NCBI GenBank assembly: GCA_037441385.1 | Contig: JBBISH010000111.1 | Location: 1 to 20,997 of the forward strand | Origin: Myxococcales bacterium | GTDB taxonomy: Bacteria > Myxococcota_A > UBA9042 | Length of the DNA stretch: 20,997 bases | Reading direction: 5' to 3' | Part shown: piece after piece, positions 1 through 19,689 of the stretch | Position numbering within the stretch: position 1 is the stretch's first letter | Layout of the letters: every line of letters begins with the position of its first letter | Made by a program: the position numbers and the translations under genes | The notes under the pieces: generated by a model | The model's database searches: none | Seen by the model: the letters and a program-made list of their open reading frames with translations, nothing else | Told to the model about the DNA's origin: nothing

Positions 1-1
1 G

Positions 2-3000: not shown

Positions 3001-5056
3001 GCTCAACAACCAAGGGCAGTACGCTACCACGGCGGTCGGCAGCGACGGCACCACCTATGTCGCCTGGTACGACGCCACCGCCACCTCGCTGCGGTATGCC
3101 TGGCGCCCGGCCGGCGGGTTGTGGCAGCCCAGCTTGACCCTAGACGCCGCCAATAGCGTCGGCACCTTCCCTTCGCTGGTCGTGGCCGCCGACGGCACGG
3201 TCACCATTGCCTACTACGACGCCAGCAACACCAACTTGAAGGTCGTCAGCGGCAGCAAGAGCAGTTTTGGCGCGCCGGAAGTCGTTGATGGCGCCACACC
3301 CGCGACGGTGGCGGGCAAGTACGCGTCGCTCGCCTTGGATCCGGTCAAGGGCACCTTGGCGATCGCCTACTACGACGACAGCGCCAACGATCTGAAATTG
3401 GCTATCAAAGTCGGCTCGACCTGGTCGCTGCAGACCGTGGCCGGCGCGTCGCCCAGCAACGACACCGGCATGTACGCCGCCGCGGCCTTTGGTCCAGACA
3501 GCTTGCTTCACGTCGCCGCGCTCAACAACACCAACAATATCCTGGTGTACAACGTGGGCACGGTGGGCGCCACCGGCGTTTGGAGCGGCGGCGCCTGGCA
3601 GAACCTGGACACGCTGAACAGCCCAGGCCGCTACACCGAATTGGCGGTGGATGCCAAGGGCAATCCGGTGTTGGCGCACGTCGCCACTGGCAAGAACGAG
3701 CTGCGCGTCCTGACCAACAGCAGCAAGGGCAGCGGCACCTGGACCAGCACCGTGGTGGCCGCCAGCACGCCCAACCAGCGCCTGGGTCTGGCGATCGACG
3801 CCACCGGCAATCGCATGGTGGCGTGGCGGTCCACGGCCACCGACGCGGTGATGCTGGCTACTCAGTCACCCGGCGGCACATGGAGCAGCCAAGTCGTGGA
3901 TCCGATTGCCTCGACCGACGTTGCGTTGGCCACCGCGGGCAGCGGCGACTGGCACATCCTCTACGTCGACCCCAGCCTGTCGGCCCTGCGCGAGGCGTCG
4001 AACACATGGACCGCCTACGGCACCAACGACACCGTGCTGCTCGACACGGCGGTCGGCGCGTCGCAGACCGGCGCGGCGGTCGACGCGAGCGGCGTGGTGC
4101 ACGTGGTCTACTACGACAAGAACAACGCCTCGCTCAAACTGGCCCGGCGCATCGGCGGGGCCTGGTACCGCGCCCATTTGGACCCGGGCAGCGGCGACAC
4201 CACGGGCGACTACGCCTCGATTGCGCTTGGCGTGGACGGCACCGCCCACATCTCGTTCCACGACACGGCCAACAACGACCTGAAATACGGGCGCTTGCTC
4301 CCCTCGGGCGCCTGGCAAAGCGAGACCGTGGACAGCGCCGGCAGCATCGGCCGCTACAGCAGCATCGCGGTCGCGGCCGACGGCACGGTCCACATCGCCT
4401 ACCGCGACGACAGCAACAGCGACCTGAAGTACGCCGTGGGCAGCTACAAGTTGTGGACCGTGCAAAAAGCCGTAGACAGCTACGGCAACGTGGGCGTGTT
4501 CGCGTCGATCGCGCTGGACGGCCAGGGCCAGCCGCACATCGCCTGTGCCTACGCGTCGAGCTGGGATCTGCACTACATCTTCAAGTCCGGCGGCACGTGG
4601 CAGGCGGTGCAGGCGCCCGAAACGGTCGATTCGGTGGGCTACTACGCCTCGCTCGCGCTCGACGCCAACGGCAAAGCCCACATCGCCCACAAAGACGAAA
4701 CGACCAACAAGGTCCACTACACCACGAACAAGAGCGGCAGCTGGGTGACGACGGTGATGGCGTCGACCAGCAACGACGGCAATTACGCGTCGCTGGTCCT
4801 CAACCCCGCCGGCGGCGCCTACATCGCGTACAAGAACATCTCGACCAACGACGTGTGGATGGTCACCAACGTCTCGGGCGCGTGGGACGTGCCGTGGCTC
4901 ATCGAGGCGACCAACAACGTAGGCGACTGGCTCAGCATGGCCCAGGGCCCCGACAAGAAGCTGTACGCTTCGTACCGCGACGCCAACCTCAACGTGCTCA
5001 AGGTCGCGCGCGTCACGATCAACAACAACGTCGACGACAACTGCGACGGCTACTGA
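2..5056 (+). CDS. Giant extracellular/surface protein, 5'-truncated: tandem Cys-rich CxDGNxCTxDxC repeats, a split MopE-like metal-binding motif, and 21 beta-propeller blade repeats
   Basis: Frame is open from position 2 (CSDGNACTLGDVC...) to TGA 5054-5056 with strong GC3 bias. About 590 aa of CDDGNPCTxDxC repeats are followed by 21 repeats of about 49 aa (G.Y.S.A.D..G..HI.YYD....DLKYA....W). The start lies upstream of the window. Confidence 0.93.
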   Translation, partial: CSDGNACTLGDVCAAGACKAGTAKTCNDGNQCTDDACDAGTGNCLNSNNSAACDDGSACTLSDTCAGGTCKPGAAKNCADTDTCTTDTCNAADGTCLHAPIVGCGGNCKAAADCNDGNPCTDNQCTTGKCAFPANTAACDDNNACTISDLCSGGTCKSGAAKACDDGNPCTNDACDSSTGNCTNVNNTASCSDNNACTVGDVCASGACKAGSAKTCSDGNPCTDDSCATATGACTNLANTATCTDNNACTVGDVCASGTCKPGSALGCDDGNICTVDACNPASGCTHGAATGSCDDGNKCTSGDVCSASACKPGTAVVCDDNNPCTTDTCDPAAGCKFANNTVACSDGNACTLNDLCAAGACTAGAAKVCNDSDTCTSDACDPATGTCVFKAIIGCGGNCAVAADCADGNICTDDLCSAGKCKTIYNNATCSDSNACTSGDVCTSGTCKGAGSVLCDDGNPCTTDSCNPASGCAFANNSATCNDNNPCTASDVCAAGKCAGTAYSCDDGKACTTDTCMGNGSCTNAVNSGTCLIGGVCFNAGQLNTANDCQACLAASNAAWSPQPAGTACNDSNPCTVGETCNGASTCKGVVNLDADKDGVIAATAVGSDGKTVQCGGLDCNDGNAAIKPGVADPHDGFATTIDVVDAGGNVGAWLAMAVDLTGRSHMVWYNELSKDWEYGSNSGGIWQSVVLESAGDIGKYAAIALDKAGKVHTVAYSVTDKDLHYVSNASGTWVSENVSSDTTNDVGQWAQVAVTSDGSVHVLYLDATAKVIQYRKRSGGQWGTPVALTAASTWEAISLIADSKDNLHAAWHDNVKYDLIYAMAPAGAAFTTPVTVDSAGSTGDHPALTIDNNGQPHIVYSDATNQDLKHAWFNGSVWTSGKAWAGSSASYPGDYRYGAAIDSNGALHACMVNVVFDGISYSWTIRRILGAALPFGVNTNYHSELVGPKMARASWCAMARGNDGKIYMATSQIGGGTSTGNIAQAVTTSGPGWRLIDSLNNQGQYATTAVGSDGTTYVAWYDATATSLRYAWRPAGGLWQPSLTLDAANSVGTFPSLVVAADGTVTIAYYDASNTNLKVVSGSKSSFGAPEVVDGATPATVAGKYASLALDPVKGTLAIAYYDDSANDLKLAIKVGSTWSLQTVAGASPSNDTGMYAAAAFGPDSLLHVAALNNTNNILVYNVGTVGATGVWSGGAWQNLDTLNSPGRYTELAVDAKGNPVLAHVATGKNELRVLTNSSKGSGTWTSTVVAASTPNQRLGLAIDATGNRMVAWRSTATDAVMLATQSPGGTWSSQVVDPIASTDVALATAGSGDWHILYVDPSLSALREASNTWTAYGTNDTVLLDTAVGASQTGAAVDASGVVHVVYYDKNNASLKLARRIGGAWYRAHLDPGSGDTTGDYASIALGVDGTAHISFHDTANNDLKYGRLLPSGAWQSETVDSAGSIGRYSSIAVAADGTVHIAYRDDSNSDLKYAVGSYKLWTVQKAVDSYGNVGVFASIALDGQGQPHIACAYASSWDLHYIFKSGGTWQAVQAPETVDSVGYYASLALDANGKAHIAHKDETTNKVHYTTNKSGSWVTTVMASTSNDGNYASLVLNPAGGAYIAYKNISTNDVWMVTNVSGAWDVPWLIEATNNVGDWLSMAQGPDKKLYASYRDANLNVLKVARVTINNNVDDNCDGY

Positions 5057-7035: not shown

Positions 7036-7155
7036 CCCCCTCTGCCGCACTCATGGAGCGCCCAGGCACGCTGGCCGGCCTGTGGGCCCGAACTGTGGAC
7101 CCGGCCTGACCTGCGCGCCCGCGCCGCCGCTAGGCCCGGCTGCAATACCGGCTGA

Positions 7156-7287
7156 TACGAACCCCGTCTGATTCACGCCTGTACGGCTTCTCTGACCCGG
7201 TCTGCAACCGGCGAGAATCAGGCGGGGACCCCGGTTCGGGCCCGAAGAATTGCCCGAGTCTTCGATCCGATTCGGACGGAACTGGTA
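7156..7287 (-). repeat. 132-bp dispersed MITE/ERIC-like element, copy A (full length)
   Basis: Reverse complement aligns without gaps to 10344-10475 and 19474-19605. Flanked by TGA on both sides (7153-7155 and 7288-7290). Confidence 0.92.
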
Positions 7288-7423
7288 TGAAGTGTCGGCT
7301 GCAGCACCGGCCCGCCGGTTTGGTCCACGGATCGGCTGCAATTGACTGCAGCGCCGGCTGCGGTGTACACCCAAACCGCCGCGATAGGTCGCGCAACGGG
7401 CCTCGCAATGCGGTGGAGCGGGC

Positions 7424-8170
7424 ATGACCGACGGGCATTCGCAGCACAAGCCGCGCCGCACGGGCACCGGCGGCCTAGAGATTCGCGAGATGGAGATCGG
7501 CGATCTGGCGGCCGTATACGAGTTGGGCGAGCAACTGTTCACGGCCGAGCGATGGCCTGCGCTCTACCGCACTTGGGACGCCTACGAACTGGCGGTCCAC
7601 TTTGCGTCGGATAGCGAGATGTGCCTGGTGGCCGAATACCAGGACAAGGTGGTGGGCTTTGCCGTGGGCACGATGCTGGAAAAGCGCGGCTCGGCTTGGA
7701 CCTATGGCCACCTGCTGTGGCTGGGCGTGGACCCCAACGCGGGCCGCAAGGGCATCGGCGGCAAGCTGACCGCCCACCTGCAAGAGATCTTCATCGAAAT
7801 GGGCGCGCGCATGATCCTGGTCGACACCGACGCGGACAATGCGACGGCGATTGGCTTTTTCAAGCGCGCCGGGTTCGACGACGACAGCGCCCATGTGTAC
7901 TTGTCCAAAAACCTGACCTATGACCCGCAGTACATCGAGTTCCACAAGAAGGGCCGGGTGGCCGATCGCCCAGGCGGGGTGCGGCGGGCCATCCGCCGGG
8001 CGGCCGAGCTGCGCCTGGCCGAGCAACGGCAAGCCGACGTGAAGGCTGCGGAATTGCGCGCTGCCGACCAGAAAGCCGCGGAACGCAAGGGCGCCGACAA
8101 GCACGGTCGCGCGAGCACGCCCGCACCCGCCAAACCGGGCAAGCCCAGCGCGGATGGGGAATCCGTCTGA
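7424..8170 (+). CDS. GNAT family N-acetyltransferase with a charged low-complexity C-terminal tail
   Basis: IREMEIGDL N-terminus, CLVAEYQDKVVGF, acetyl-CoA motif LGVDPNAGRKGIG, NATAIGFFKRAGF; GGAG RBS. Confidence 0.92.
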   Translation: MTDGHSQHKPRRTGTGGLEIREMEIGDLAAVYELGEQLFTAERWPALYRTWDAYELAVHFASDSEMCLVAEYQDKVVGFAVGTMLEKRGSAWTYGHLLWLGVDPNAGRKGIGGKLTAHLQEIFIEMGARMILVDTDADNATAIGFFKRAGFDDDSAHVYLSKNLTYDPQYIEFHKKGRVADRPGGVRRAIRRAAELRLAEQRQADVKAAELRAADQKAAERKGADKHGRASTPAPAKPGKPSADGESV

Positions 8171-8286
8171 ATCGGCTAGAAACATCCGGCAATTCTTCTT
8201 GCCCGAACCGGGGTATCCGGTTAATTCTCGCCAGTTGCGCAACAGGTCAGAGAAGGCGTACCGGCGCGAATCAGGTGGGGTGGGTA
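8155..8286 (+). repeat. 132-bp element, copy B (diverged, first few bases eroded)
   Basis: TCCGTCTGAATCGG...GCCCGAACCGGGGT...ATTCTCGCCAGTTGC...GAATCAGGTGGGGTGGGTA is colinear with the other copies and fills the GNAT-M20 gap. Confidence 0.88.
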
Positions 8287-9440
8287 TGAACAGTCGCAAC
8301 GTCCAGGCGGTCTTGACGGCCCTGCGGCCGCGCAGGCTGGTCGAATTGCTGGCCGAGGCGGTGGATGCCTACAGCCCCACCTACGCCGAGGCGCCCGCCA
8401 CCGAGGTCTTCGAGCGCGCCCTGCTGCGCGGTGGTCTGACCGTGGTGCGCCAGCCGGTGGCGAATCCCAGCGGCAACGGTGCGCGCCACAATTTGCTGAT
8501 TCGCCTGGGGCCCGAGCCGCTGGCGCTGCTCTTTGTCGGCCACGTTGACACAATTCCTGCAGGGAGTGGGGCGATGCGGTTTGCGCCCGCGCGCATCGAC
8601 GACGACCGGCTCATCGGTCTGGGGGCGGCGGACATGAAGTCCGGATGCGCCGCGATGGTCGAGGCCGTGCTGGCCGTGGCCGAATCGGGCTTGGCGCTGC
8701 GGCACGGCGTGGGACTGGCGCTGGTGGTGGGCGAAGAAGAGTACGGCGACGGCTCCGCGGCATTGCCCGACGCGTTTTGCGCGCCGCTGACGGTGGTGGG
8801 CGAGCCGACCAATTTGTCGCCGTGCATCGAGCACTACGGCTACTTGGAATGCCAACTGCTCAGTCGCGGCATTCGCTCGCACGCGGCGCTGGCCGGGCAG
8901 GGCGGCGGCGCCATCCACGCGCTGCTCACCTGGCTGCTGGGCATCTTGGACGGTGCCGAGCCGACGCGAGCGGGCATTGCCATCAACCCGCGGCTGGTGC
9001 AGGGCGGCGGGGAGCTGTTCGTGGTGGCGGACCGGTGCGAGGCGACGTTGGACGTGCACTGGCGGCCGGGCGTCGAGGTCGACGAGGTCGTGGCGGCGAT
9101 CGAGCGCGGTCGCGGCGAGGCCCAGCGCAGCCACACCACCTGCCAACTGGAGTACCGAGAGCTGTTCCGCGCCCAAGGGTACAGCAATCGCCCCAGCGAG
9201 CCGCGGCTGCAGCCTCTGGCTCACGCGTTCGACGTTGCTGAACTGCCTTGGAGTCCTGGAGTTTTTCGCTCGCACTCGGACGCGGATCTGTTCCAGCAGC
9301 GCGGCAGCGTGGCGGTGGTGTGCGGTCCGGGAGCGCTGGAAGTGGCGCACGCACCGGGCGAGTTCGTCTCGCTTGCCGAGACCGAGCGTGCCGCGCGGCT
9401 GTATGCCTGCCTGGCGACGCTGCTTTGTACCGGGGCGTGA
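8286..9440 (+). CDS. M20 family metallohydrolase (ArgE/DapE-like deacylase)
   Basis: Metal-ligand motifs GHVDT, GAADMKSG, GEEE, VGEPT, SDA and AHAPGE. ATG 8286 chosen because 8154-8285 is repeat DNA. Confidence 0.9.
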   Translation: MNSRNVQAVLTALRPRRLVELLAEAVDAYSPTYAEAPATEVFERALLRGGLTVVRQPVANPSGNGARHNLLIRLGPEPLALLFVGHVDTIPAGSGAMRFAPARIDDDRLIGLGAADMKSGCAAMVEAVLAVAESGLALRHGVGLALVVGEEEYGDGSAALPDAFCAPLTVVGEPTNLSPCIEHYGYLECQLLSRGIRSHAALAGQGGGAIHALLTWLLGILDGAEPTRAGIAINPRLVQGGGELFVVADRCEATLDVHWRPGVEVDEVVAAIERGRGEAQRSHTTCQLEYRELFRAQGYSNRPSEPRLQPLAHAFDVAELPWSPGVFRSHSDADLFQQRGSVAVVCGPGALEVAHAPGEFVSLAETERAARLYACLATLLCTGA

Positions 9441-9546
9441 TCCGCAGCGCCCGTGCCGCCACGTTCCGCTTGACCGCCAGTGGCCGCGCGGTCAAGGTGC
9501 CGGCCGCAGCGCGCACAGCGACGCACCGGATTCCCCGGACCCCGCG

Positions 9547-9597
9547 CAGAGTACAACCCGGCGCCGAATACGACTTCGCCCAGAACACAACCTCGCA
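9547..9597 (+). repeat. Three imperfect tandem 17-bp direct repeats upstream of the DUF1697-like gene
   Basis: CAGAGTACAACCCGGCG / CCGAATACGACTTCGCC / CAGAACACAACCTCGCA; units 1 and 2 each match unit 3 at 12/17. Confidence 0.6.
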
Positions 9598-9618
9598 ACG
9601 CGGCAGGTGCAGAAACGC

Positions 9619-10200
9619 ATGAAAATAGTTGGACTACTTCGCGGAATCAATGTCGGCAAGTCGATCCAGGTGCCCATGAAGGAGCTCACGCGGCTGCTCG
9701 ACGCCGCCGGCCTGGCGCAGGTCGCCACCTACCTGAATTCGGGCAACGTGGTGTTCGACTCGGACGAGCCGATCGCTCAACTGGGGCCCCGCCTGGACGC
9801 GTTGATCGAGGCCCGGTTCGGCGTACCGATCCCCATGCTGCTGCTGGGCGGGCCGCAGATTCGGGCGATCCGCGACGCCATCCCGATCGAGTGGGAAAAC
9901 AACGAAACCGAGCAGACTTATGTGGCGTACCTGTTCCCGGATGTGGATCGCCCCAGCCTGGTCCAGGAACTGCCGGTGCGCCGCGAATGGATGGACCTGC
10001 GCTACCTACCGGGTGCGCTGATCTGGAACATCCAGCGTGTACACGTCAATCGCAGTCAAATCACCAAGATCGTCAGCCACAAGGCCTATGCCCGCATGAC
10101 CACGCGCAACGTCAACACGGCCCGCAAACTGGCCGAGCTGTGCGAGGCTGGGCTGTCGACCGGGCCATCGCCACAGGGCTCGCCACAGGGTTCCCTGTAG
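9619..10200 (+). CDS. DUF1697-like protein
   Basis: Characteristic LLRGINVG...VPMKEL...V.TYLNSGNVVF N-terminus and MTTRNVNT.RKL C-terminus. Confidence 0.88.
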   Translation: MKIVGLLRGINVGKSIQVPMKELTRLLDAAGLAQVATYLNSGNVVFDSDEPIAQLGPRLDALIEARFGVPIPMLLLGGPQIRAIRDAIPIEWENNETEQTYVAYLFPDVDRPSLVQELPVRREWMDLRYLPGALIWNIQRVHVNRSQITKIVSHKAYARMTTRNVNTARKLAELCEAGLSTGPSPQGSPQGSL

Positions 10201-10257
10201 CGTTAGCAGGTCGCGCGACCGGCGCCGCGCCCAAGGCGGCCAGGGGCCAACACGGGA

Positions 10258-10318
10258 ACCCAATTCCGCCTGATTCGGCTGAAAGTTCCGGGAATTCTCC
10301 GGGCCCGAACCGGGGTCC
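10258..10318 (+). repeat. 132-bp element, copy C (5' half only)
   Basis: CCAATTCCGCCTGATTCGGCTGAAAGTTCCGGGAATTCTCCGGGCCCGAACCGGGGTCC matches the first ~62 nt of the element (one 1-nt gap) and stops at the internal motif. Confidence 0.82.
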
Positions 10319-10343
10319 GTAGGTCGCTATGCGACGCCCGTCA

Positions 10344-10475
10344 TACCAGTTCCGTCCGAATCGGATCGAAAACTCGGGCAATTCTCCGGGCCCGAACCGG
10401 GGTCCCCGCCTGATTCTCGCCAGTTGCGCAACGAGTCAGAAAAAGCGTATAGGCGTGAATCAGGTGGGGTGCGTA
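10344..10475 (+). repeat. 132-bp element, copy D (full length)
   Basis: 121/132 identical to copy E by hand count. Flanks are TCA and TTA; the TTA is the CBS gene stop codon on the minus strand. Confidence 0.93.
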
Positions 10476-10883
10476 TTAGCGGCCCATTTGCCGACCGATC
10501 TCGCGCACCGCGCGCAGGATGTCAAAGCGCGTAATTGCGCCGACCAGCTTGCCATTTTCGACCACCGGGTAGCGGCGGACGTAGTCGCCCAAGAACATGC
10601 CGGCACAGAAGAAGATGTTCATGTTGGCGCTGACCGTGCGCGGGTTCTTGGTCATGAAATCGGCCACCGTGCCCTTGGGCAGCTCGTTGTCCACGCCAGC
10701 CGCCAGCAAGCGCAGCAGGTCCTTTTCCGAAATAATGCCCACCACCTCGCCCGCCTCGTTTACGACCGGCGCGCCCGTGACATGGTGTTCCAACAAGAAG
10801 TCGACGGCCGCCAGGATGTCGGTGTCGGGCTTCAGGGTCTGCAGGTCCTTGTCCATGTATTGGCTGACGCGAGGCATGTTCAT
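10476..10883 (-). CDS. Stand-alone CBS-pair (Bateman domain) protein, 135 aa
   Basis: VSQYM...HHVTGAPVVNEAGEVVGIISEKDLL and TVADFMT...RRYPVVENGKLVGAITRFDIL; AAGGAG RBS before ATG 10883. Confidence 0.93.
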   Translation of the reverse strand: MNMPRVSQYMDKDLQTLKPDTDILAAVDFLLEHHVTGAPVVNEAGEVVGIISEKDLLRLLAAGVDNELPKGTVADFMTKNPRTVSANMNIFFCAGMFLGDYVRRYPVVENGKLVGAITRFDILRAVREIGRQMGR

Positions 10884-10908
10884 GACGTACTCCTTTTCGC
10901 AACAAGCA

Positions 10909-10924
10909 AGCGGGGTGCTTGCCA
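10909..10924 (-). promoter_or_regulatory. Possible sigma54-type promoter for the CBS gene
   Basis: TGGCAAGCACCCCGCT has GG-N10-GC spacing but lacks the TT before GC. It overlaps the palindrome GCAAGC-N5-GCTTGC. Confidence 0.3.
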
Positions 10925-11096
10925 CAGCGTAGGTGGCCAGCCCGTGCTGGTCAACACGCCGGTGCCCATCCGGACCGGTGTGGCTCGGAAAACGTCTATG
11001 CCGATCACCTAGTTGCCGACTTGAACAAGCTGGACCTTGCCGCGCGCCGCGCCTGCCCGTAGGCTCCACAACCTTTCCACCTGGAGCCTCTTGCCC

Positions 11097-11705
11097 ATGC
11101 AATTCGAATTCAAGTCGGACTTCCCCGTCCAGGACGACGCCTGCAAGCAGGCCACCGGCAAGGCCTTGGCCGACTGGTTTCAAATCATCGAGGCCAACGG
11201 TCTTTCGACCAAGCGGCGCGACGCCATCCAGCACATCTACAACGAGACGGGCCGCGGCAAAGACGTCTGGTGGCCCACCACGATTTGGGTCGAATTCGAG
11301 AGAGCCCGCGGCATCGTCCAGCGCGACGGGCGGGCCGAGGGCTACAACATCTGCTGCACCAAAGGGTTCAAGCAGACGCCGGCCGAGATTTTTGCCCACC
11401 TGCGCCACGAAGCGGCGTTTGCCCAGTGGGTCCAGGGCTGGTCCGGCGCGCTCGTCGAAGGGGCGCCCTTCACGTGCGGCGTGTGCTCGGGCGCGGTCGG
11501 CCGGATTCGCGACGGCAAGGACTTGCGCTTGCTGTGGCAGAGCCCCGGTTGTGGCGTCACCGACGTCGAGATGATGTTCGTCGTCGCCGCCGGCAAAACC
11601 ACGCTCAACATCTACCACAAGCGCATCGCCAGCCGCGACGAGGCCGACGGCCTGCGGCGGGCTTGGGGGCAGGCCCTCGATCGGCTCAAGGCATTGGTCG
11701 GCTAG
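11097..11705 (+). CDS. DUF4287-like N-terminal helical domain fused to an SRPBCC/START-like domain
   Basis: KQATGKALADWF...WWPTTIWVEFE N-terminal part; C-terminal KTTLNIYHKRI...ADGLRRAWGQALDRLK helix typical of SRPBCC; GGAG RBS. Confidence 0.75.
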   Translation: MQFEFKSDFPVQDDACKQATGKALADWFQIIEANGLSTKRRDAIQHIYNETGRGKDVWWPTTIWVEFERARGIVQRDGRAEGYNICCTKGFKQTPAEIFAHLRHEAAFAQWVQGWSGALVEGAPFTCGVCSGAVGRIRDGKDLRLLWQSPGCGVTDVEMMFVVAAGKTTLNIYHKRIASRDEADGLRRAWGQALDRLKALVG

Positions 11706-11738
11706 GGGTTGCGGCCGGCTGACGAACCTTGGCTGGCC

Positions 11739-12347
11739 ATGGACGCAATGGGCTCGCGGAGGCTCGGCGTGGTTGACTTGCGCATGCTTTACGGATCGGC
11801 TTTGGCGCTGCTTCTGTCGGCCACCAGCCACGCCGCGCTGGCGATGGAACCGCACGCGCCGCCCACGGGATGGGGGCTGGCGTGGGCGCCCCTGCGGCTG
11901 ATCGATCAGCAATTCGAGCTGCGCGGCGAGTGGCGGCAGTCGCATTATGGCGTGGCCGTGCTCGCGTCTGCGGGTGGGCAGACCACCCTGCAACCGCTGG
12001 AGCAGGTGCAGCGGGGCGTGGGCGGCGGGACCCAAGCCCTGCTGGCCGCGCTGGGCGACATGCGGCGCGGATTGCTGGTTGGTGCCGAATTTCGCTATAG
12101 TTATCAGTGGGTAGATGCCGCCGCCAACCTCGTGCCGATCCCGGTAACGACGCAGCGATGGGCCGGCGGGGTGGTGCTGGCGGCGCGCTGGTCGTCCGCG
12201 CAGGGGAGGCTGTTTGGCGAGGTGCAGGCGGTCGCCCGATGGCAGCGGACCACGGCTGAGATCGTTTGCTGCACGACGATCCGCCAGGAGCAAACGTCAA
12301 GTGAATTCAGGGTGGTGCCCACCTTGTTGGTGGGGTTCCAATGGTAG
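11739..12347 (+). CDS. Hypothetical exported protein, possible small outer-membrane beta-barrel (start uncertain: 11739 or 11784)
   Basis: Signal-like ALALLLSATSHAALA, alternating beta-strand pattern, C-terminal aromatic LLVGFQW; 7-bp overlap with the next gene. Confidence 0.6.
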   Translation: MDAMGSRRLGVVDLRMLYGSALALLLSATSHAALAMEPHAPPTGWGLAWAPLRLIDQQFELRGEWRQSHYGVAVLASAGGQTTLQPLEQVQRGVGGGTQALLAALGDMRRGLLVGAEFRYSYQWVDAAANLVPIPVTTQRWAGGVVLAARWSSAQGRLFGEVQAVARWQRTTAEIVCCTTIRQEQTSSEFRVVPTLLVGFQW

Positions 12348-13246
12348 CACCGCAACGACCGCCCGCAGCAGCTTCCAGGCGCTGGCCGCGATGGGTCGCA
12401 CTTGGCGCGCTCTTGGCGCAGCTGCTGGCCGGCGAGGCAGCTGCGTATTCGCCCAATTGGCTCTACGAAAACCCCGTTGGTCTTCCAACGGCGGCGACGG
12501 CGCCCGGCGACAGCGAATGGCCCGGTTCCGGCAGCGTCGAGCTTTCGGTCGGGCAGGCGCTCCACGGCGGCCTACTTGGCTTTGAGATCTGCTCGCTGAC
12601 CCACTGCCGGCAGGCGGCGCTGCACTTCGTGGCCATCGGCGACGGCGCTGGGCTGCTCTTGGGCGGCCTGGTCGGGTCGCGCTTGCGTCCGCATCAGGCT
12701 ATGCTCATCAACTCGGGCACCGCGCTGGGCTTTTTCAACTCCCTGGCATTGGACTGGGACCAACCCAAGGCCCAACCTGGCCGATGGCTCGGCTTCCAGG
12801 TCGGGGGAGCGCTGGCGGGTGCGATCGCGGGCCAATTCGCCCACCCCGAGACCGGGCGGCTGGCCATGGCCAATTCGGCCGCGCTGTGGCTGGCCACCGC
12901 CACGTACTTCGGCCGGCACGCGGCGAATCGCGAGAACTTTGGCCTGTGGACCGCCGCGGCCGCCGACCTGGGCTACGTCTTTGGTCTTTTTGCGTGGGAC
13001 GGACTGCCGTTGTCGCGAGCTAGGGTGGCCCAGATCGACGCGGCTGCGGGACTTGGGCTCACCCTGGGCGTGCTCGGCGCACACGCGGCCGTGGATCGCA
13101 ACGACGACCATGCCATGTGGGTTGGTGGCACGGTTGGCGTGCTGGCGGGCGTTGCACTGGGCACGTTGTGGGCCGATTGGCGCAGCGCCGCCGCCGTCCA
13201 GATCGTTCCGCAGGGCAACGGGGTGGCGCTGATGGGCACGTTCTAG
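12341..13246 (+). CDS. Hypothetical Gly/Ala-rich envelope protein with glycine-zipper helices
   Basis: Signal-like N-terminus (…LLAGEAAA|Y), repeated GxxxGxxxG helices, C-terminal VQIVPQGNGVALMGTF of the type common in myxobacterial envelope proteins. Confidence 0.75.
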   Translation: MVAPQRPPAAASRRWPRWVALGALLAQLLAGEAAAYSPNWLYENPVGLPTAATAPGDSEWPGSGSVELSVGQALHGGLLGFEICSLTHCRQAALHFVAIGDGAGLLLGGLVGSRLRPHQAMLINSGTALGFFNSLALDWDQPKAQPGRWLGFQVGGALAGAIAGQFAHPETGRLAMANSAALWLATATYFGRHAANRENFGLWTAAAADLGYVFGLFAWDGLPLSRARVAQIDAAAGLGLTLGVLGAHAAVDRNDDHAMWVGGTVGVLAGVALGTLWADWRSAAAVQIVPQGNGVALMGTF

Positions 13247-13321
13247 CTCGCGGCCAGTCCACAGCTCGCCCCCTGGCCGCAAGACACGAAGTCGCTGCAC
13301 TTCGGCGCCAACGGCCAGGTA

Positions 13322-15583
13322 TTGACGCCGCCCGTCGATCTCGCGGCTGAGTGGAAGATTCCCGTTTCGATGGCGGCGCCCGGCCTTGCCTATGCGCACG
13401 GCCAGTTCATCTTGGCCTATATGCTGTTGCCCAAGGAATATGGCACCAAAAGCACCAACTTGTCGCTGCGTCTGCGCGCCTGGGACGAGGGCTTGGGCGG
13501 CTGGACCGGCGGCGAGCAAATCCTTGGGGTCGATTCGTTGGGATGGAAGTCGCCAGAATTGCTCGCGACTTCGTATGGCGTGCTGGCCGCCAAGGACTGG
13601 TGGAGCTCGGGCGCAGACCCCAACGGCGCGGCGCTCATGGCGCTCATCGGTCCGGACGCCAAGCCGGTGGCTCCGCTGTGGATTGGCACTGGTGGCAACA
13701 AGACGCTGCTGCGCATTCAGCCGCTGCAGGTGGGCGACCAACTGGTGGGGATTGCGACGTCCGGCAGTGGCCAGCAGGTCGACTTGGCATGGGTGCCCAT
13801 TTCGTGCCCGAGTACCGGCAAGTGCGCCAGCCCGGCCCAGTGCGACGACAACAACCCCTGCACCAGCGATGCGTGCGACTTTGTCAGTGGCTGTCTGCAC
13901 TTGCCTACTGCCGCCACTTGCACGGACGGCAACCCGTGCACCTTGGCCGAGACGTGCTTGGACGGGGCCTGCACCACCCCCGCGCTCTGCGACGATGGCG
14001 ACCCGTGCACCACCGATGTCTGCGACGCCGGGGGCACGTGCAGCCACCAGGCCCAAGATTTGGCCTGCAACGACGGCTTGCCCTGCACCAAGGACGACCA
14101 ATGCAAGAACGGCAAATGCGCCGGCAGCACCGACGACTGCAACGACGGCAACGCGTGCACGAACGACTTGTGCAGCCCCACGACCGGTTGCGTCCACACC
14201 GACAAGTCTGCCGAATGCGACGACAGCAACCCGTGCACGGTGGACTCGTGCAAGGCCACGGGCGCCAGTGCGGGTTGCCAGCATACCCCTGCGCCTGCCA
14301 ACGCGGTCTGTGTGGCGGACTGCACGCTGGGCTATTGCGCCGGGGCCAAGTGCCAGGCGGGCAGCGATTCGGCTTGGTGGCGCGTCGGGGCCGGCGAGGA
14401 TGGCAACGGCGACGCCGTGGCTGCGACGCCCGACGGCGGCATGGTCTACGGCGGCTATTTCTGGAAAGAACTGAAGCAGTATGCCTTGGTCAGTCGAGTC
14501 TCGCCGGGCGGCGTCGTGCTGTGGTCGTCCGTGTCGGCCACCCAAGACAGCGTGGTCAAGGCCATTGTGGCGACTCAAGACGGCGGTGCGCTGGCCGTTG
14601 GCGCGACCAATGCGGGGGGACTGGCGTCGTCGGCGTGGCTGCAGGGTTTTGATCCTGCTGGAAAAATCCAGTGGACGACTCAGGTGCCGCCGGCCGCCTC
14701 CTATCTTGCCGGGGCCGCGCCTGATGGCAGCGGTGGCCTGGTGGCGGTGGGCAGTTTGGAGAAGCCGGACGGGAGCCTCACAGGGTATGTCGTGCGTGTT
14801 GCGGGTTCGGGCAAGCTGCAGTGGCAGTTGCAGGCGCCGGCCGCGCCCATTGCGGGCCACCTGCGGGCCGTGGTCGCGGTGTCAGACGGGGGCTTTGTCA
14901 GCTGTGGCACCGCCACAAGCTCGCCTTCCAAGTTGGTGCTGGTGCGGTTTGGCGCTGACGGGACCTTGGCCTGGCAAAAGGTCGTGCAAGGCGGTGCCAT
15001 GGGCTGCTCGGCGCTCGCCGCCGTGCCGGGCGGTTTTGCCGTGGCCGACTACTTGGACATCGTGCGCTTGGACATGGCCGGCAACGTGCTTTGGGCGGCG
15101 CCTTTGCCCCCGGCTCCATACGGCGCCGAATACAACCTGTTCGCCCTGGCCGCCGAACGCGATGGCGCGCTCATCCTGGTCGGCGATCGGTACGAACCCG
15201 ATTATTACAAGCATCTATCTTGGTTTGCGCGCCTCGATTCGGGCGGCCATTTTGCGCAAGAGACCCTGTTTGGCGGCGACGCCTACGACCAATGGCACGC
15301 CGTCACGGCCGCGCCAGGAGGTGGCTATCTGCTGGTGGGCGAGGGCACGTCTGCCAAGCAGAGCAGTGGCGCCGTGGTGGCCCGATTGGACCCGTGGGGC
15401 CAAGCCGAGTGCGCCGCCTCGGGCAACTGTGCCAATCTTGCGGGCAACAGCTGCAGCGATGGTAACCCGTGCACCGTAGACAGTTGTTCGCCCAAGGGCG
15501 GTTGCCAACACGTCAATCTGGACTGGCTCCCATGCGGCACGGGGCAGGTTTGCGACGGCGGCTGGTGTGTGCCGTTGCCGTGA
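13322..15583 (+). CDS. Cys-rich repeat plus 7-blade beta-propeller protein, probably 5'-truncated (possible pseudogene)
   Basis: CDDNNPCTSDAC-type repeats, seven blades (A...DGG....G......RxDxxG...W), and a final Cys repeat. No signal peptide or clear RBS; the frame stays open back to 13247. Confidence 0.8.
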   Translation: MTPPVDLAAEWKIPVSMAAPGLAYAHGQFILAYMLLPKEYGTKSTNLSLRLRAWDEGLGGWTGGEQILGVDSLGWKSPELLATSYGVLAAKDWWSSGADPNGAALMALIGPDAKPVAPLWIGTGGNKTLLRIQPLQVGDQLVGIATSGSGQQVDLAWVPISCPSTGKCASPAQCDDNNPCTSDACDFVSGCLHLPTAATCTDGNPCTLAETCLDGACTTPALCDDGDPCTTDVCDAGGTCSHQAQDLACNDGLPCTKDDQCKNGKCAGSTDDCNDGNACTNDLCSPTTGCVHTDKSAECDDSNPCTVDSCKATGASAGCQHTPAPANAVCVADCTLGYCAGAKCQAGSDSAWWRVGAGEDGNGDAVAATPDGGMVYGGYFWKELKQYALVSRVSPGGVVLWSSVSATQDSVVKAIVATQDGGALAVGATNAGGLASSAWLQGFDPAGKIQWTTQVPPAASYLAGAAPDGSGGLVAVGSLEKPDGSLTGYVVRVAGSGKLQWQLQAPAAPIAGHLRAVVAVSDGGFVSCGTATSSPSKLVLVRFGADGTLAWQKVVQGGAMGCSALAAVPGGFAVADYLDIVRLDMAGNVLWAAPLPPAPYGAEYNLFALAAERDGALILVGDRYEPDYYKHLSWFARLDSGGHFAQETLFGGDAYDQWHAVTAAPGGGYLLVGEGTSAKQSSGAVVARLDPWGQAECAASGNCANLAGNSCSDGNPCTVDSCSPKGGCQHVNLDWLPCGTGQVCDGGWCVPLP

Positions 15584-15674
15584 GTCCTTGCGTAGTGAGA
15601 AGCGAATCTGGCAGGCTTTCCGGCAGAGCGACCCTGCCCAATTGTTCCGGGGTCCCAACAACGCGGAGGATTCT

Positions 15675-16694
15675 ATGCGCACGTATCGCCCGATCGCCTG
15701 TGCCCTCTTCGCCGCCGTGGGCTTGTTGGCTGCCGGCTGCCACACCACCGACACCAGCGCCAGCGACGGATCCGGTTCCGAAATCGCAGCCAGTGTGGTC
15801 AGCGGAGCCCTGAACAACAGCGCGGGCTCGTCCGTCGCCGACAGCCGCCAGTTGCCACGGCCCGAGCGCGAGTTCTGGCGGCCGCTCCTAGACGCTTTGC
15901 GCCCCGTGTCCGAGGCGTTTGCCGCCAAGTGGTCGTGCCAGGGCGGCAACCTGCAGCCAAAATTTGCCGGCGACAAGGGCAATCCCTACACGTACACGCC
16001 GATCAGTTGCACGGTGACTTGGGGCAACGGCAAGACCTCGTCGGTCACCTGGAGCGGCACTTTCAGCTTGAACTACAGCAAGGAGTGCGACGCACTCCAC
16101 CCGTGGATCGGCAACCAGATCGCCGGTTGCGGCGTGACGCGCACCACCGCCGCGGGCGGCAACACGCGCACCCTGACCGGACCAGCGGGCAACAGCTACG
16201 CGGTCGTGCACGACACCCACGGCGCCACCAGCGGCTGGGACAGCAGCGTCACGCCCGCGCCCAGCGACTCGGGCGTGGTCGCCACGTGCGGCGCCAGCGG
16301 CTGCAAAGAGGGCGGAACCTTGGTCATTTCGGGCAGCCACCTGACCGGCAACGTCACCAGCGGCGGCAAGACCTCCAAGCTGTGGGATCACACAGTGTCG
16401 ACGAGCGCCGGCGGCTTGACCATCGCCAGCAGCGGCGCCAATCGCGAGGTGTCGGGCACGGTGATCGTTCAGCATAACCTTGCCAAATTCACGACCAAGA
16501 CCACATTCAACCAGGTCAAGTACAGTGATCCGTCGTGCTGCTTCCCAACCAGCGGCTCGATCACCACGGCCTTTACGGGCGGACCCCATGTCGGCAAGAC
16601 CGAGAGCTTGGCGTTCAACGGCGCGTGCGGCGATGCGACGCTCACGGCCAGCGATGGCACGACCAGCACGCTGGTCCTGCAACACTGTCTGTAG
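15675..16694 (+). CDS. Lipoprotein of unknown function, Ser/Thr/Gly-rich, beta-rich, with paired Cys
   Basis: GGAGGA RBS, ATG 15675, lipobox LLAAG-C, host-like codon usage. Confidence 0.87.
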   Translation: MRTYRPIACALFAAVGLLAAGCHTTDTSASDGSGSEIAASVVSGALNNSAGSSVADSRQLPRPEREFWRPLLDALRPVSEAFAAKWSCQGGNLQPKFAGDKGNPYTYTPISCTVTWGNGKTSSVTWSGTFSLNYSKECDALHPWIGNQIAGCGVTRTTAAGGNTRTLTGPAGNSYAVVHDTHGATSGWDSSVTPAPSDSGVVATCGASGCKEGGTLVISGSHLTGNVTSGGKTSKLWDHTVSTSAGGLTIASSGANREVSGTVIVQHNLAKFTTKTTFNQVKYSDPSCCFPTSGSITTAFTGGPHVGKTESLAFNGACGDATLTASDGTTSTLVLQHCL

Positions 16695-16835
16695 CCGTCT
16701 GCTCCAGAGCGTTGGGCGGCTGCCGTGGAACTCATCGGAGATTGCTTCCCCGTTCATGGCCCGCTGATCGTTGGCCCCCGCACGCTCGCGGCCCGCTTGG
16801 TCGCGGAATTCGAGTCGGCCATGCTGGTGTTCTAG

Positions 16836-17034
16836 GAGCCTGTCGGCAAAATGGGCGACACTGCATGTCCATTTAGTTATACATTATGATCTTATTGGGT
16901 GCCGCCAGTCTCCTAGCCTTTTTCGTTTGTCCAACTGGCCGAAAATCGCCCGAAGTGAATTCGTGCGATTTCAGCCAGTTGCCGCCGCGCAAGACGCGGC
17001 GCTAGGATTGTGCCGGGATTATCCCGACACGCTC
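16836..17034. mobile_element. 199-bp non-autonomous MITE with ~17-bp terminal inverted repeats and CTAG flanks (IS5/IS1182-like ends)
   Basis: CTAG|GAGCCTGTCGGCAAAAT ... ATTATCCCGACACGCTC|CTAG; TIRs match 14/17; AT-rich interior; no transposase ORF. Confidence 0.8.
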
Positions 17035-17113
17035 CTAGGGGACGGCGCCTGCCTTACCGGATGGCCACTGGTGCCGTAAGTGCAGTGGAAACCTGTGCGA
17101 TCCTTGGCACTTG

Positions 17114-17297
17114 GCCCTCACCCCGCCGCCTTCGGCGTCTGCCCCGCTCTCCCGGCGCCGCTGGCGCCACTCGCTCGCTTCGCTCACCGCGGGGACCCCT
17201 CCTCTCCCAACGCTTTGGGCGAGGGGCAATGCAATTTCCCTTTATCCCTCGCCCACTTCAGTGGGAGAGGGGTCGGCAGCAGGCCGGGGGTGAGGGC
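17114..17297. repeat. REP-like palindromic cluster (CCCTCACCCC / CCCTCTCCC...GGGAGAGGG type)
   Basis: Perfect 11-bp outer inverted repeat GCCCTCACCCC / GGGGTGAGGGC enclosing the hairpins CCTCTCCCAA-CGCT-TTGGGCGAGG and CCCTCGCCCACT-TC-AGTGGGAGAGGG. Confidence 0.78.
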
Positions 17298-17760
17298 TTT
17301 CGGCGCTGCGTCAGAGTAGGCAAGCGGTAAGGCAGGGGACGGCGGGCCTTCCCAGCGCAGCCGACATCTTCCGCGCTGGCCGAACCGGCGGACGGAGGCG
17401 CACGCCAACCGTCGCGGCATCGGTGCCCCGCCGCCCTTTGTCGTGGTCTTGCCGCGGGAGGCAACGCGAGGTTCGGCCGACGAACGAGAACAGCACGTGT
17501 ATCATGCGGTTCCTCTCGCCTTTGCCGGGCTGAAGGTGGCACGCCGATTCGGGGGGACGCGCGGCGACGGCAACTTGCGATCCTCGCATTCGGTCTGTTT
17601 GTGTCCCGAGACGGCGAGATGGAGTTGTGGCCAGGAGAATATTCCGTATAAGGGAAATAGATTGTCGTTCACGCGACATGAACCAAACGGTGCCCTGGTG
17701 CACCCAAATCTCGTGCAGCCGAACAGGCTCCCCCCTTAGCAGCGGCCGCACGGAGTTGCC

Positions 17761-19368
17761 ATGCGCATAGGTACCAAAATGGCTCTGCTTGGGGGCGCGG
17801 CCACGCTGCTGGCGGGCGGTGCGGGCGTGTTGGCCGTGTGGTTGGCAAGCTTGGTGGTCGAGCGCCAAGTCGTCGAGAAGTTCGAAGCTGTGTCGACCTA
17901 CACCATGGACAAGGTTCATCGGCTGTTTGCCCGCCGGTCCGACGACATGGCGGCGCTGGCGGCCGACCCGGCCCTGGAAGCTACGCCGCTCCCACTCGAC
18001 GCGGTGGCGGCCAAGCTGGGCGATTACCTGCGTCGCTACCCGAACTACGCCCCCTACACGTCGCTGTCGTTGTTTGACCTGCAGCGGCGGCGCCTTGCGG
18101 ACACAACCGGGCGCGGTATTGGCGAAACCCACACGCTCTCCGAGTACTGGCCCGAAGTGATGGCAGGCCACGATCGCGTATTGCAGGTGTCGACGTCCGA
18201 ATCGCTTGGTCAGCCGGTGTTCCATGTGGCGCAAGTCGTGCGGGATCCACAACGCCGGGCTGCGGGGGTGCTGGTGGCCCGCATCGCCGTCGCAAGCCTG
18301 CGCGACGTGATTGGGCGGCCCCTGCGGCTGTTTGCCGTCGATGGCCCATTCGAGGTCGATCTGCTTGACCGCACGGGGCTGGTGCTCTACGCGAACCACG
18401 ACCAAGAGCGCACGTTGCGGCAGCGCCACCCGTTGCACACAACCATCGCCAACCTGGTCGCGAGCGGTCCGCGCACGGGCGCGCTGGTCGTGCCGCAAGC
18501 GGCGGCCGAGGGCGACCGCCTGGTCATCTACGCCCGCGAACCCAGCGAAGGCACTGAACCGAGTGGGGATTGGACTCTCGTCATCAGCATACCTGAAGCG
18601 GTGGCCCTGGCTGATATCAACGCGCTTCGTCGGCAGTTGCTCGCCCTGGTGGCCGCCGTTGGGCTGTTGGCCATCGCCCTGGCCTGGCTGCTGGCGCGCA
18701 ATCTCCTGCGGCCGATCGATGCGCTGGGTGCGGCGACCGCGGCCGTAGCTGCCGGCGACTTGAGCGTGCAAGTTGCCGTCAACGGCAAAGGCGATTTCGC
18801 CCTGTTGGCGCAGCGTTTCAACGCCATGGTCGCCGATCTGCGCGAGTTGCACGGCGGACTGGAGCGCGCCGCCACCACGGATCGCCTGACTGGGTTGTTG
18901 AATCGCCACGGGTTCGACGACATGTTGACCCGCGAGCTAGACCGCGCCAAGCGCTACGGATCGCAGCTGTCGCTCATCTTCATCGATATCGACCACTTCA
19001 AGTCCATCAACGACCGCTTCGGCCACGCGGCGGGCGACCAAGTCCTAGCCGAAGTTGCCCGACTTCTGCAAGGCAGCGTACGCAGCACCGACGGTCTGGG
19101 GCGCTGGGGCGGCGAAGAATTCGTGATCTTGACACCAGAGACCAGCTTGCGCGACGCCGCGGCGTTGGCCGAGCGTATCTGCCAAACCTGCAGATCGGCG
19201 GACTTTGCCAACGTGGGCCGGACCACCCTGAGCGCCGGCGTGGTGTCGCTCGCGCCGGGCGAGGCTGGCGACGCGCTCCTGCGCCGAGCCGATGCCGCCG
19301 TCTATGCCGCCAAAGCCAACGGGCGCGACCGGGTGGAGATCGACGCCGAGCCGGGTTGCCGCAGCTGA
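17761..19368 (+). CDS. Membrane-bound diguanylate cyclase (TM, periplasmic Cache-like sensor, TM, HAMP, GGDEF)
   Basis: Two TM helices, HAMP (RPIDAL...GDL...DFALLAQRFNAM), TDRLTGLLNR, DIDHFKSINDRFGHAAGD, intact GGEEF with RSTD I-site; GGAG RBS. Confidence 0.95.
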   Translation: MRIGTKMALLGGAATLLAGGAGVLAVWLASLVVERQVVEKFEAVSTYTMDKVHRLFARRSDDMAALAADPALEATPLPLDAVAAKLGDYLRRYPNYAPYTSLSLFDLQRRRLADTTGRGIGETHTLSEYWPEVMAGHDRVLQVSTSESLGQPVFHVAQVVRDPQRRAAGVLVARIAVASLRDVIGRPLRLFAVDGPFEVDLLDRTGLVLYANHDQERTLRQRHPLHTTIANLVASGPRTGALVVPQAAAEGDRLVIYAREPSEGTEPSGDWTLVISIPEAVALADINALRRQLLALVAAVGLLAIALAWLLARNLLRPIDALGAATAAVAAGDLSVQVAVNGKGDFALLAQRFNAMVADLRELHGGLERAATTDRLTGLLNRHGFDDMLTRELDRAKRYGSQLSLIFIDIDHFKSINDRFGHAAGDQVLAEVARLLQGSVRSTDGLGRWGGEEFVILTPETSLRDAAALAERICQTCRSADFANVGRTTLSAGVVSLAPGEAGDALLRRADAAVYAAKANGRDRVEIDAEPGCRS

Positions 19369-19470
19369 CACGAAGCCCACCTATTCGAGCCTGTGCGGTT
19401 TTGCGGGTCTGTCTGTAACCAGCGAGACGCAAGTGGGGATCCGCTCAGAAAATGCCCCCAGACCAAGGTA
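19369..19470 (-). repeat. 132-bp element, copy F (decayed, internally deleted, inverted relative to copy E)
   Basis: CACGAAGCCCACCT-ATTCGAGCCTGTGCGG...TCTGTAACCAGCGAGA...GTGGGGATCC aligns to copy A (TACGAACCCCGTCTGATTCACGCCTGTACGG...TCTGCAACCGGCGAGA...GCGGGGACCC). It ends in GGTA next to copy E. Confidence 0.72.
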
Positions 19471-19473
19471 CTA

Positions 19474-19605
19474 TACCAGTTCCGTCCGAATCGGCTCGAA
19501 AACACGGGCAATTTTTCGGGCCCGAACCGGGGTCCCCGCCTGATTCTCGCCAGTTGCAGAACGGGTCAGAAAAGCCGTACAGGCGCGAATCAGGTGGGGT
19601 GCGTA
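19474..19605 (+). repeat. 132-bp element, copy E (full length)
   Basis: Gap-free alignment to copies A and D; flanks are CTA and TTA. Confidence 0.93.
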
Positions 19606-19689
19606 TTACTCGGGCGCTTGCCAGCCGCGCCGCCCGTGTGTAGGTTGTCGATGCGATCTGGGTTCGCGCAACAGGTCTTGGGGGGCGCG

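Follow-up and report, generated by a model that had tools for sequence, protein, structure and literature searches.

A family of short TNA-flanked repeats in a Myxococcales genome, probably a miniature transposable element

Six repeats in the window

The window is the whole 20,997-nucleotide contig JBBISH010000111.1 of a Myxococcales bacterium (assembly GCA_037441385.1), which is contig C111 of the genome bin called G000 here (6.63 Mb, 221 contigs, 66.9% GC, 91% complete). Between positions 7153 and 19608 it carries six copies (A to F) of a short intergenic repeat that we regard as very probably a MITE (miniature inverted-repeat transposable element). The copies lie in both orientations, at the positions given by an earlier sequence-only reading of the contig, and no mobilising enzyme is encoded in the window, as that reading also had it.

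Copy A (7153–7290, core 7156–7287, minus strand) is a full long form with 95% identity to the family consensus and is located in the divergent spacer between a sigma-54 activator gene and a GNAT gene; its flanks read TGA/TGA on the plus strand, or TCA/TCA in the orientation of the element. Copy B (8152–8289, core 8155–8286, plus strand) is a long form with 81% identity to the consensus. Its left end is decayed (GGA TGG), giving the flanks GGA/TGA, and the GNAT reading frame terminates within it, 13 bases in, at the TGA of 8168–8170. Copy B fills the gap between the GNAT frame and an M20 peptidase frame with no base to spare, and an ATG at 8286–8288, a possible start of the M20 peptidase gene, consists of the final A of the copy and the first two bases, TG, of the flanking TGA. 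Insertion at A|TGA would thus leave a start codon whole.

Copy C (10255–10324, core 10258–10321, plus strand), earlier taken for a half copy, is a complete but decayed example of a 65-bp short form; its flanks are GGA/GGT, with TNA (T, any base, A) lost. Copy D (10341–10478, core 10344–10475, plus strand) is a full long form with flanks TCA/TTA, the right-hand TTA (10476–10478) being the TAA stop of a minus-strand gene for a CBS-domain protein. Copies F and E lie head to head and have a CTA triplet in common. Copy F (19366–19473, core 19369–19470, minus strand) is a decayed long form with internal loss, in which nhmmer matches 19367–19442 to model positions 60–137. Its flanks are TGA/CTA, and the low-side TGA (19366–19368) is the stop of a GGDEF gene. 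Copy E (19471–19608, core 19474–19605, plus strand) is a full long form with flanks CTA/TTA.

When the six stretches are aligned, the 132-bp cores of A, B, D and E are colinear with no insertion or deletion. The ends TAC...GTA described for the core are found in A, D and E; B reads TGG at its left. The flanking triplets had been read correctly for A, D, E, F and the right side of B, and the two at the CBS and GGDEF genes are indeed real stops. An independent repeat finder reports direct copies at 8154–8308, 10343–10497 and 19473–19627, an inverted partner at 7148–7290 (79–90% complementarity) and a shorter piece at 10281–10318. Six loci in a 21-kb window compare with 1.42 expected (Poisson p = 0.0035); as the genome comprises 316 windows, roughly one this dense should occur, and the local density is unremarkable by itself.

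The CBS-bearing frame that ends at copy D has 605 codons (10476–12293, minus strand) and is probably more than one gene. Only its last ~150 codons are scored as coding, and on contig C43 of the related genome G007 the matches to 10476–10957 and 11082–11705 lie about 9 kb apart.

The family in the genome and its flanking triplets

A profile search with nhmmer returned 455 hits in G000, of which 276 reach both ends of the element, 101 the left end only, 60 the right end only and 18 neither. With the hits of a short-form profile merged in, the family amounts to 449 loci and 52,180 bp (0.79% of G000). Some copies are 98–99% identical to copy D. Many contigs of the bin terminate within a copy; the family thus breaks the short-read assembly. 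The bin holds no contig under about 2.6 kb.

The family comes in three forms: the 65-bp short form, a symmetric hairpin form and the 132-bp long form, which is the abundant one. The short form consists of the left 60 bases joined straight to the last five, and explains most of the left-only hits. In the hairpin form the two ends mirror each other as near-perfect inverted repeats, with TNA flanks; it accounts for a few of the right-only hits. The long form reads as the left part of the short form fused to the hairpin form. Copies are frequently inserted in each other's flanks, as with E and F, and we infer for the long form an origin in the insertion of a hairpin-form copy beside a short-form one, with later loss of the junction between them. 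Coding capacity is not expected at 132 or 65 bp, and where a reading frame crosses a copy it is that of a neighbouring gene.

The flanking triplets were counted on 279 long copies aligned to the profile. Conservation reaches beyond TAC...GTA: in 254 copies, T and A dominate the columns three bases and one base out, respectively, on both sides (T 198/254 and A 203/254 on the left; T 202/254 and A 214/254 on the right) and the middle base is free (on the left C 102, G 81, A 44, T 27). TNA stands to the left of 165 of the 279 copies, to the right of 195 and on both sides of 128. The two triplets are identical in 116 of these 128, where about one-third would be expected by chance from base frequencies. 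The short form has TNA on both sides in 12 of 52 copies, identical in all 12. Since the middle base matches across the two sides of a copy, the triplet is a 3-bp target-site duplication and lies outside the inverted repeat; the sequence-only reading had named a triplet within the inverted repeat as what would overturn its proposal. Perfect duplications grow rarer with divergence, from 40/56 in the class with at least 95% identity to the consensus through 42/71, 14/41, 10/40 and 8/43 to 2/28 in the class below 70%, as would be expected of a mark left by the insertion itself. Each of the four possible TNA triplets is TAA or TGA or the reverse complement of one of these, which makes stop-like flanks automatic.

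Of 41 genomes of the genus, family and class that were searched, G000 and G007 carry the element (their copies are about 80% identical), and G001 gave a single weak hit. The family is confined to one genus-level lineage, in keeping with its earlier description as lineage-specific. Twenty-four G007 copies with their flanks were mapped to G000, and both flanks fell on one G000 contig in 12 cases. Three of these (L047, L051 and L014) are exact empty sites, at which the flank alignments overlap by one TGA in G000 and G007 reads TGA-element-TGA. At seven others (L060, L062, L055, L043, L009, L050 and L052) G000 is without the element and the junction has diverged. One site, L045, is filled in both species, and its G000 copy, on contig C15, is decayed more than its flanks; the remaining one, L049, also has both flanks on one G000 contig, its base-level state standing outside this tally. 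The empty sites in the sister species demonstrate past mobility of the family and, together with the shared filled site, that it was active both before and after the split of G000 and G007. With the target-site duplication they bear out the proposal of a non-autonomous mobile element. The window itself is too rearranged relative to G007 contig C43 to yield empty sites for A, B, E and F. For D a comparison is possible at the right flank alone, and there the CBS orthologue of G007 keeps TTA with no element adjoining.

The right half of the element can pair into a stem some 20 bp long (−58.4 kcal/mol; z −4.3 against shuffles), and the opposite strand also beats its shuffles (z −3.1). The centre is better conserved than the tips, both within G000 and between G000 and G007. 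A fold on both strands and a conserved centre could suggest that the repeats serve the host, as genes for structured non-coding RNAs or as regulatory sites, and are not mobile elements in the first place. We consider this hardly credible: the copies lie in both orientations and in all types of spacer, orthologous sites are empty in the sister species, the old copy shared at L045 has decayed faster than its flanks, and Rfam gives no match to any copy when the whole window is scanned at E values up to 1. All that Rfam finds in the window is a ybhL leader below threshold (14224–14289). The strong hairpin potential, with the weak terminal inverted repeats of the long form, would also suit a palindrome-associated element such as those of IS200/IS605 or REP/RAYT, whose hairpins an HUH tyrosine transposase recognises and which it moves as single-stranded DNA. 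Such elements are not known to duplicate their target, and they need a short fixed sequence at just one side. The triplet here is duplicated, its middle base is free but agrees between the two sides, and the empty sites hold a single copy of it, which leaves an HUH enzyme a very remote prospect.

Insertion sites and gene ends

Genes were called with a self-trained caller based on codon usage (4,705 genes, 88% coding), which is rough, especially at starts; it replaced a caller based on GC content by codon position, which gave 68% coding and calls on the wrong strand. Of the 279 long copies, 62 are flanked by the stop of a called gene, 7 are entered by a reading frame, 3 lie inside a gene call, compared with about 110,000 TNA sites in coding sequence, and 207 are otherwise intergenic. 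Copies survive almost only between genes.

The sequence-only reading had the element targeting stop-like triplets, which would park it harmlessly at gene ends and add a structure to the 3' untranslated region. The target is TNA with any middle base, and what is left for the stops is a modest excess. Insertions number 62 per 2106 TGA or TAA stops, against 207 per 16,232 other intergenic TNA sites (2.3-fold) or 207 per 9694 when genes are extended to their longest frames (1.4-fold). In convergent spacers, where both borders are set by stops and miscalled start codons are therefore irrelevant, 22 of 456 stops and 43 of 2009 internal TNA sites are occupied (ratio 2.25, Fisher p = 0.003). Convergent spacers are themselves enriched, holding 69 of the 260 classified copies while making up 690 of all 4486 spacers.

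These ratios, and the 62 copies at real stops, are what would speak for an element that senses translation stops or gene ends as such. Against it, 207 copies are intergenic and off any stop, TCA and TTA flanks are found where no gene ends, and divergent (promoter) spacers hold 45 copies, close to their share in the genome. The left end of the element is met by a gene 31 times and the right end 30 times, so that the meeting of the CBS and GGDEF genes with the same end, which had been pointed out earlier, is a coincidence. In tandem spacers 85 copies are oriented with the genes and 61 against them, a weak bias (p = 0.057). TAG, which is 54% of stops, is not a flank class (10/279 on the left, 6/279 on the right). 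A two-fold excess is what purifying selection at other intergenic sites would give, and with home-made gene calls the rates themselves are rough. We regard stop-sensing as very improbable. The excess is as it should be if insertions at stops did the least harm, the stop being restored by the duplication; tolerance of insertions at gene ends would account for it, and nothing points to a mechanism that senses stops.

TAG is the commonest stop in G000 (54% of 4,580 calls; 62% among the 501 best-scoring genes), which is unusual for a bacterium of 67% GC. Small samples of G005, G013, G034 and G007 were looked at, and in relatives without the repeat TAG ends 55% of 40 and 57% of 30 long frames. A TAG-rich stop usage as a response to TNA-seeking elements was considered and dropped, since MITE-free relatives are alike in this respect (30–45 long frames each); the preference is a trait of the lineage, unconnected with the element.

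The mobilising enzyme and related elements

The repeats are very probably a MITE that duplicates TNA and for which the enzyme would be of the IS5-family, IS1031-group type. It is the target from which we infer the enzyme family, TNA with an exclusively 3-bp repeat being the signature of that group. Two reports give the IS1031 group a preference for TNA and a repeat of 3 bp (PMC12016507; PMC1676026), and a third records MITEs derived from the IS5 family, among them those of P. gingivalis and the ATR element of Neisseria (PMC4596501). A DDE transposase supplied in trans would cut out or copy the gene-less element and insert it at the palindromic trinucleotide TNA, and fill-in of a 3-nt staggered cut would leave TNA on each side. 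TGA and TAA stops would be guaranteed TNA sites at which an insertion is harmless, the stop being restored by the duplication.

Such chemistry is present in the host. A search with PF13586 led to a multi-copy IS5-family insertion sequence (IS) at contig ends, here called ISx, with the inverted repeat GAGGGTGTGTACA (starting GAG) and an interior that is missing from the bin. Its left ends are found at the ends of contigs C84, C89, C98, C116, C146, C147, C164 and C216, and its right ends at those of C28, C42, C120, C124, C149, C156, C158 and C174. TNA flanks it at all 16 junctions. Its final 57 codons are recognised by the IS5-family model NF033580 (E = 4.9e-13); the score stays under the cut-off for a full-length match, since no more than a fragment is there. 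The copies are 100% identical over 103–191 bp, which argues that the enzyme was recently active.

Two transposase genes with PF01609 were considered as the parent and rejected, the ends of the IS1182-family element on C209 and of the IS1634 fragment on C4 both being unlike those of the MITE. Transposases with PF13359 (DDE_Tnp_4) or PF13340 were found in neither G000 nor G007. Outside the known copies, G000 has 19 right-end-like and 10 left-end-like solo matches to the MITE ends; none is the end of an IS, and several are MITE copies split by other small elements.

Some of these small elements lie in the window. A second, unrelated repeat family is represented at 17049–17336 by a 288-bp copy with inverted ends starting CCTGCCTTACCG and an 8-bp duplication, GGACGGCG; it has dozens of copies in the genome, one of which interrupts a copy of the TNA element on C64. 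Short remnants with the terminal sequence of the IS1182-family element of C209 are located at 17020–17039 of the window and at 1741–2004 of C130, where a piece of about 200 bp with such an end splits a copy of the TNA element. With the relics at 17020–17336, the intergenic stretch at 16.7–17.7 kb is a pile of small transposon relics. Elsewhere in the window, 1–5056 and 13322–15583 encode large proteins of secreted type that are made up of cysteine-rich units some 25 residues long. The gene at 13322–15583 is matched by Pfam Dicty_CTDC, and the repeat finder detects many CxDDGNxCT-like units in both proteins.

Several observations weigh against an IS5-type MITE. The long form has weak terminal inverted repeats (11–12 of 24 positions shared), and a perfect duplication is missing in 16 of the 56 least diverged copies, D and E included. 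IS5-family ends usually start GG or GA, not TAC. The tips of ISx, the only IS1031-type element compared, share 2–7 of 20 anchored positions with those of the MITE, and ISx was not found in ten other genomes of the genus, G007 (81% complete) among them, which has the MITE. An autonomous element with TAC...GTA ends was not found in G000, which is weak evidence in a 91%-complete bin that lacks the smallest contigs. The exact 19-mer of the right end, searched in 185,579 species genomes, gave six stretches in one groundwater metagenome-assembled genome with no parent element, and in the JGI metagenomes a single contig with a plain MITE copy and no parent. In 36 family-level relatives, 30 loci with IS5-family transposases were fetched and none held a MITE-end motif; nor was the ISx tip seen at such loci outside G000.

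ISx itself could supply the enzyme that moves the MITE, despite the differing tips. It has the same TNA target, its identical copies have a counterpart in the MITEs nearly identical to copy D, and 6 of its 16 ends, at six different loci, adjoin the TNA at the left end of a MITE copy, with none at right ends. Sites of this kind make up about 3–5% of intergenic TNA (binomial p 3e-6 to 5e-5), and their use could mean that the ISx transposase binds the MITE end. As a source of the enzyme ISx nevertheless seems unlikely to us, as the tips are unlike (a single internal match of 15/19 has p ~0.02–0.03 before correction for six comparisons), the missing interior leaves its binding sites unreadable, and neither G007, where the MITE inserted after the split, nor the nine other genomes of the genus yielded it. 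ISx may either have a broader target preference, into which the MITE end falls by chance, or have a transposase that binds that end. That the left end of the MITE is a landing pad for ISx, whose enzyme would now move the MITE without shared terminal repeats, is a doubtful extension of the second possibility; if true, it would be a case of a transposon homing to the flank of another, and of trans-mobilisation without shared repeats.

Insertion sequences that home to repeated extragenic elements are known: IS1397, ISKpn1 and some IS110-family elements insert into REP sequences. ISx is likewise found at a repeated element, at its left-end flank. It differs from those systems in that the site is the flanking TNA and no hairpin loop, and in its enzyme family.

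The IS5-family-derived MITEs, with the IS1031 group, are like the present family in the TNA target with an exclusive 3-bp repeat and in being gene-less, short, multi-copy and intergenic. The differences are that no IS with the same ends is found here, the tips being TAC...GTA against the GAG type of ISx, that 449 loci is high for a bacterial MITE, and that there are three modular forms. Tourist-like MITEs, mobilised by PIF/Harbinger enzymes, have a 3-bp TWA or TNA duplication, are moved in trans by a transposase related to that of IS5 and prefer genic neighbourhoods; they are eukaryotic, and the likeness is by description only. Correia/NEMIS, ERIC and RUP elements are alike in size (100–160 bp), hairpin potential, intergenic positions that are often close to gene ends, and presence/absence polymorphism. 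Their hosts are Neisseria, enterobacteria or pneumococci, and Correia and RUP duplicate TA; here the duplication is TNA and the host a high-GC groundwater lineage (ERIC was compared by description only). The open-access literature searched holds no description of this family, nor of a bacterial MITE defined by TNA duplication, and the failure of the repeat to match Rfam agrees with the earlier view that it can be assigned to no named family. The family is undescribed, but of a well-known kind.

Stop-like flanks are to be expected of any transposon that duplicates TNA, and in similar cases elsewhere the match of the middle base should be checked first. If the link between ISx and the left end of the MITE is real, it would add a small new point on the target choice of IS1031-type transposases. 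The family itself adds an abundant MITE, which takes up about 0.8% of its genome and comes from a groundwater lineage that is uncultured and high in GC; its three modular forms illustrate how two short MITEs can make up a long one.

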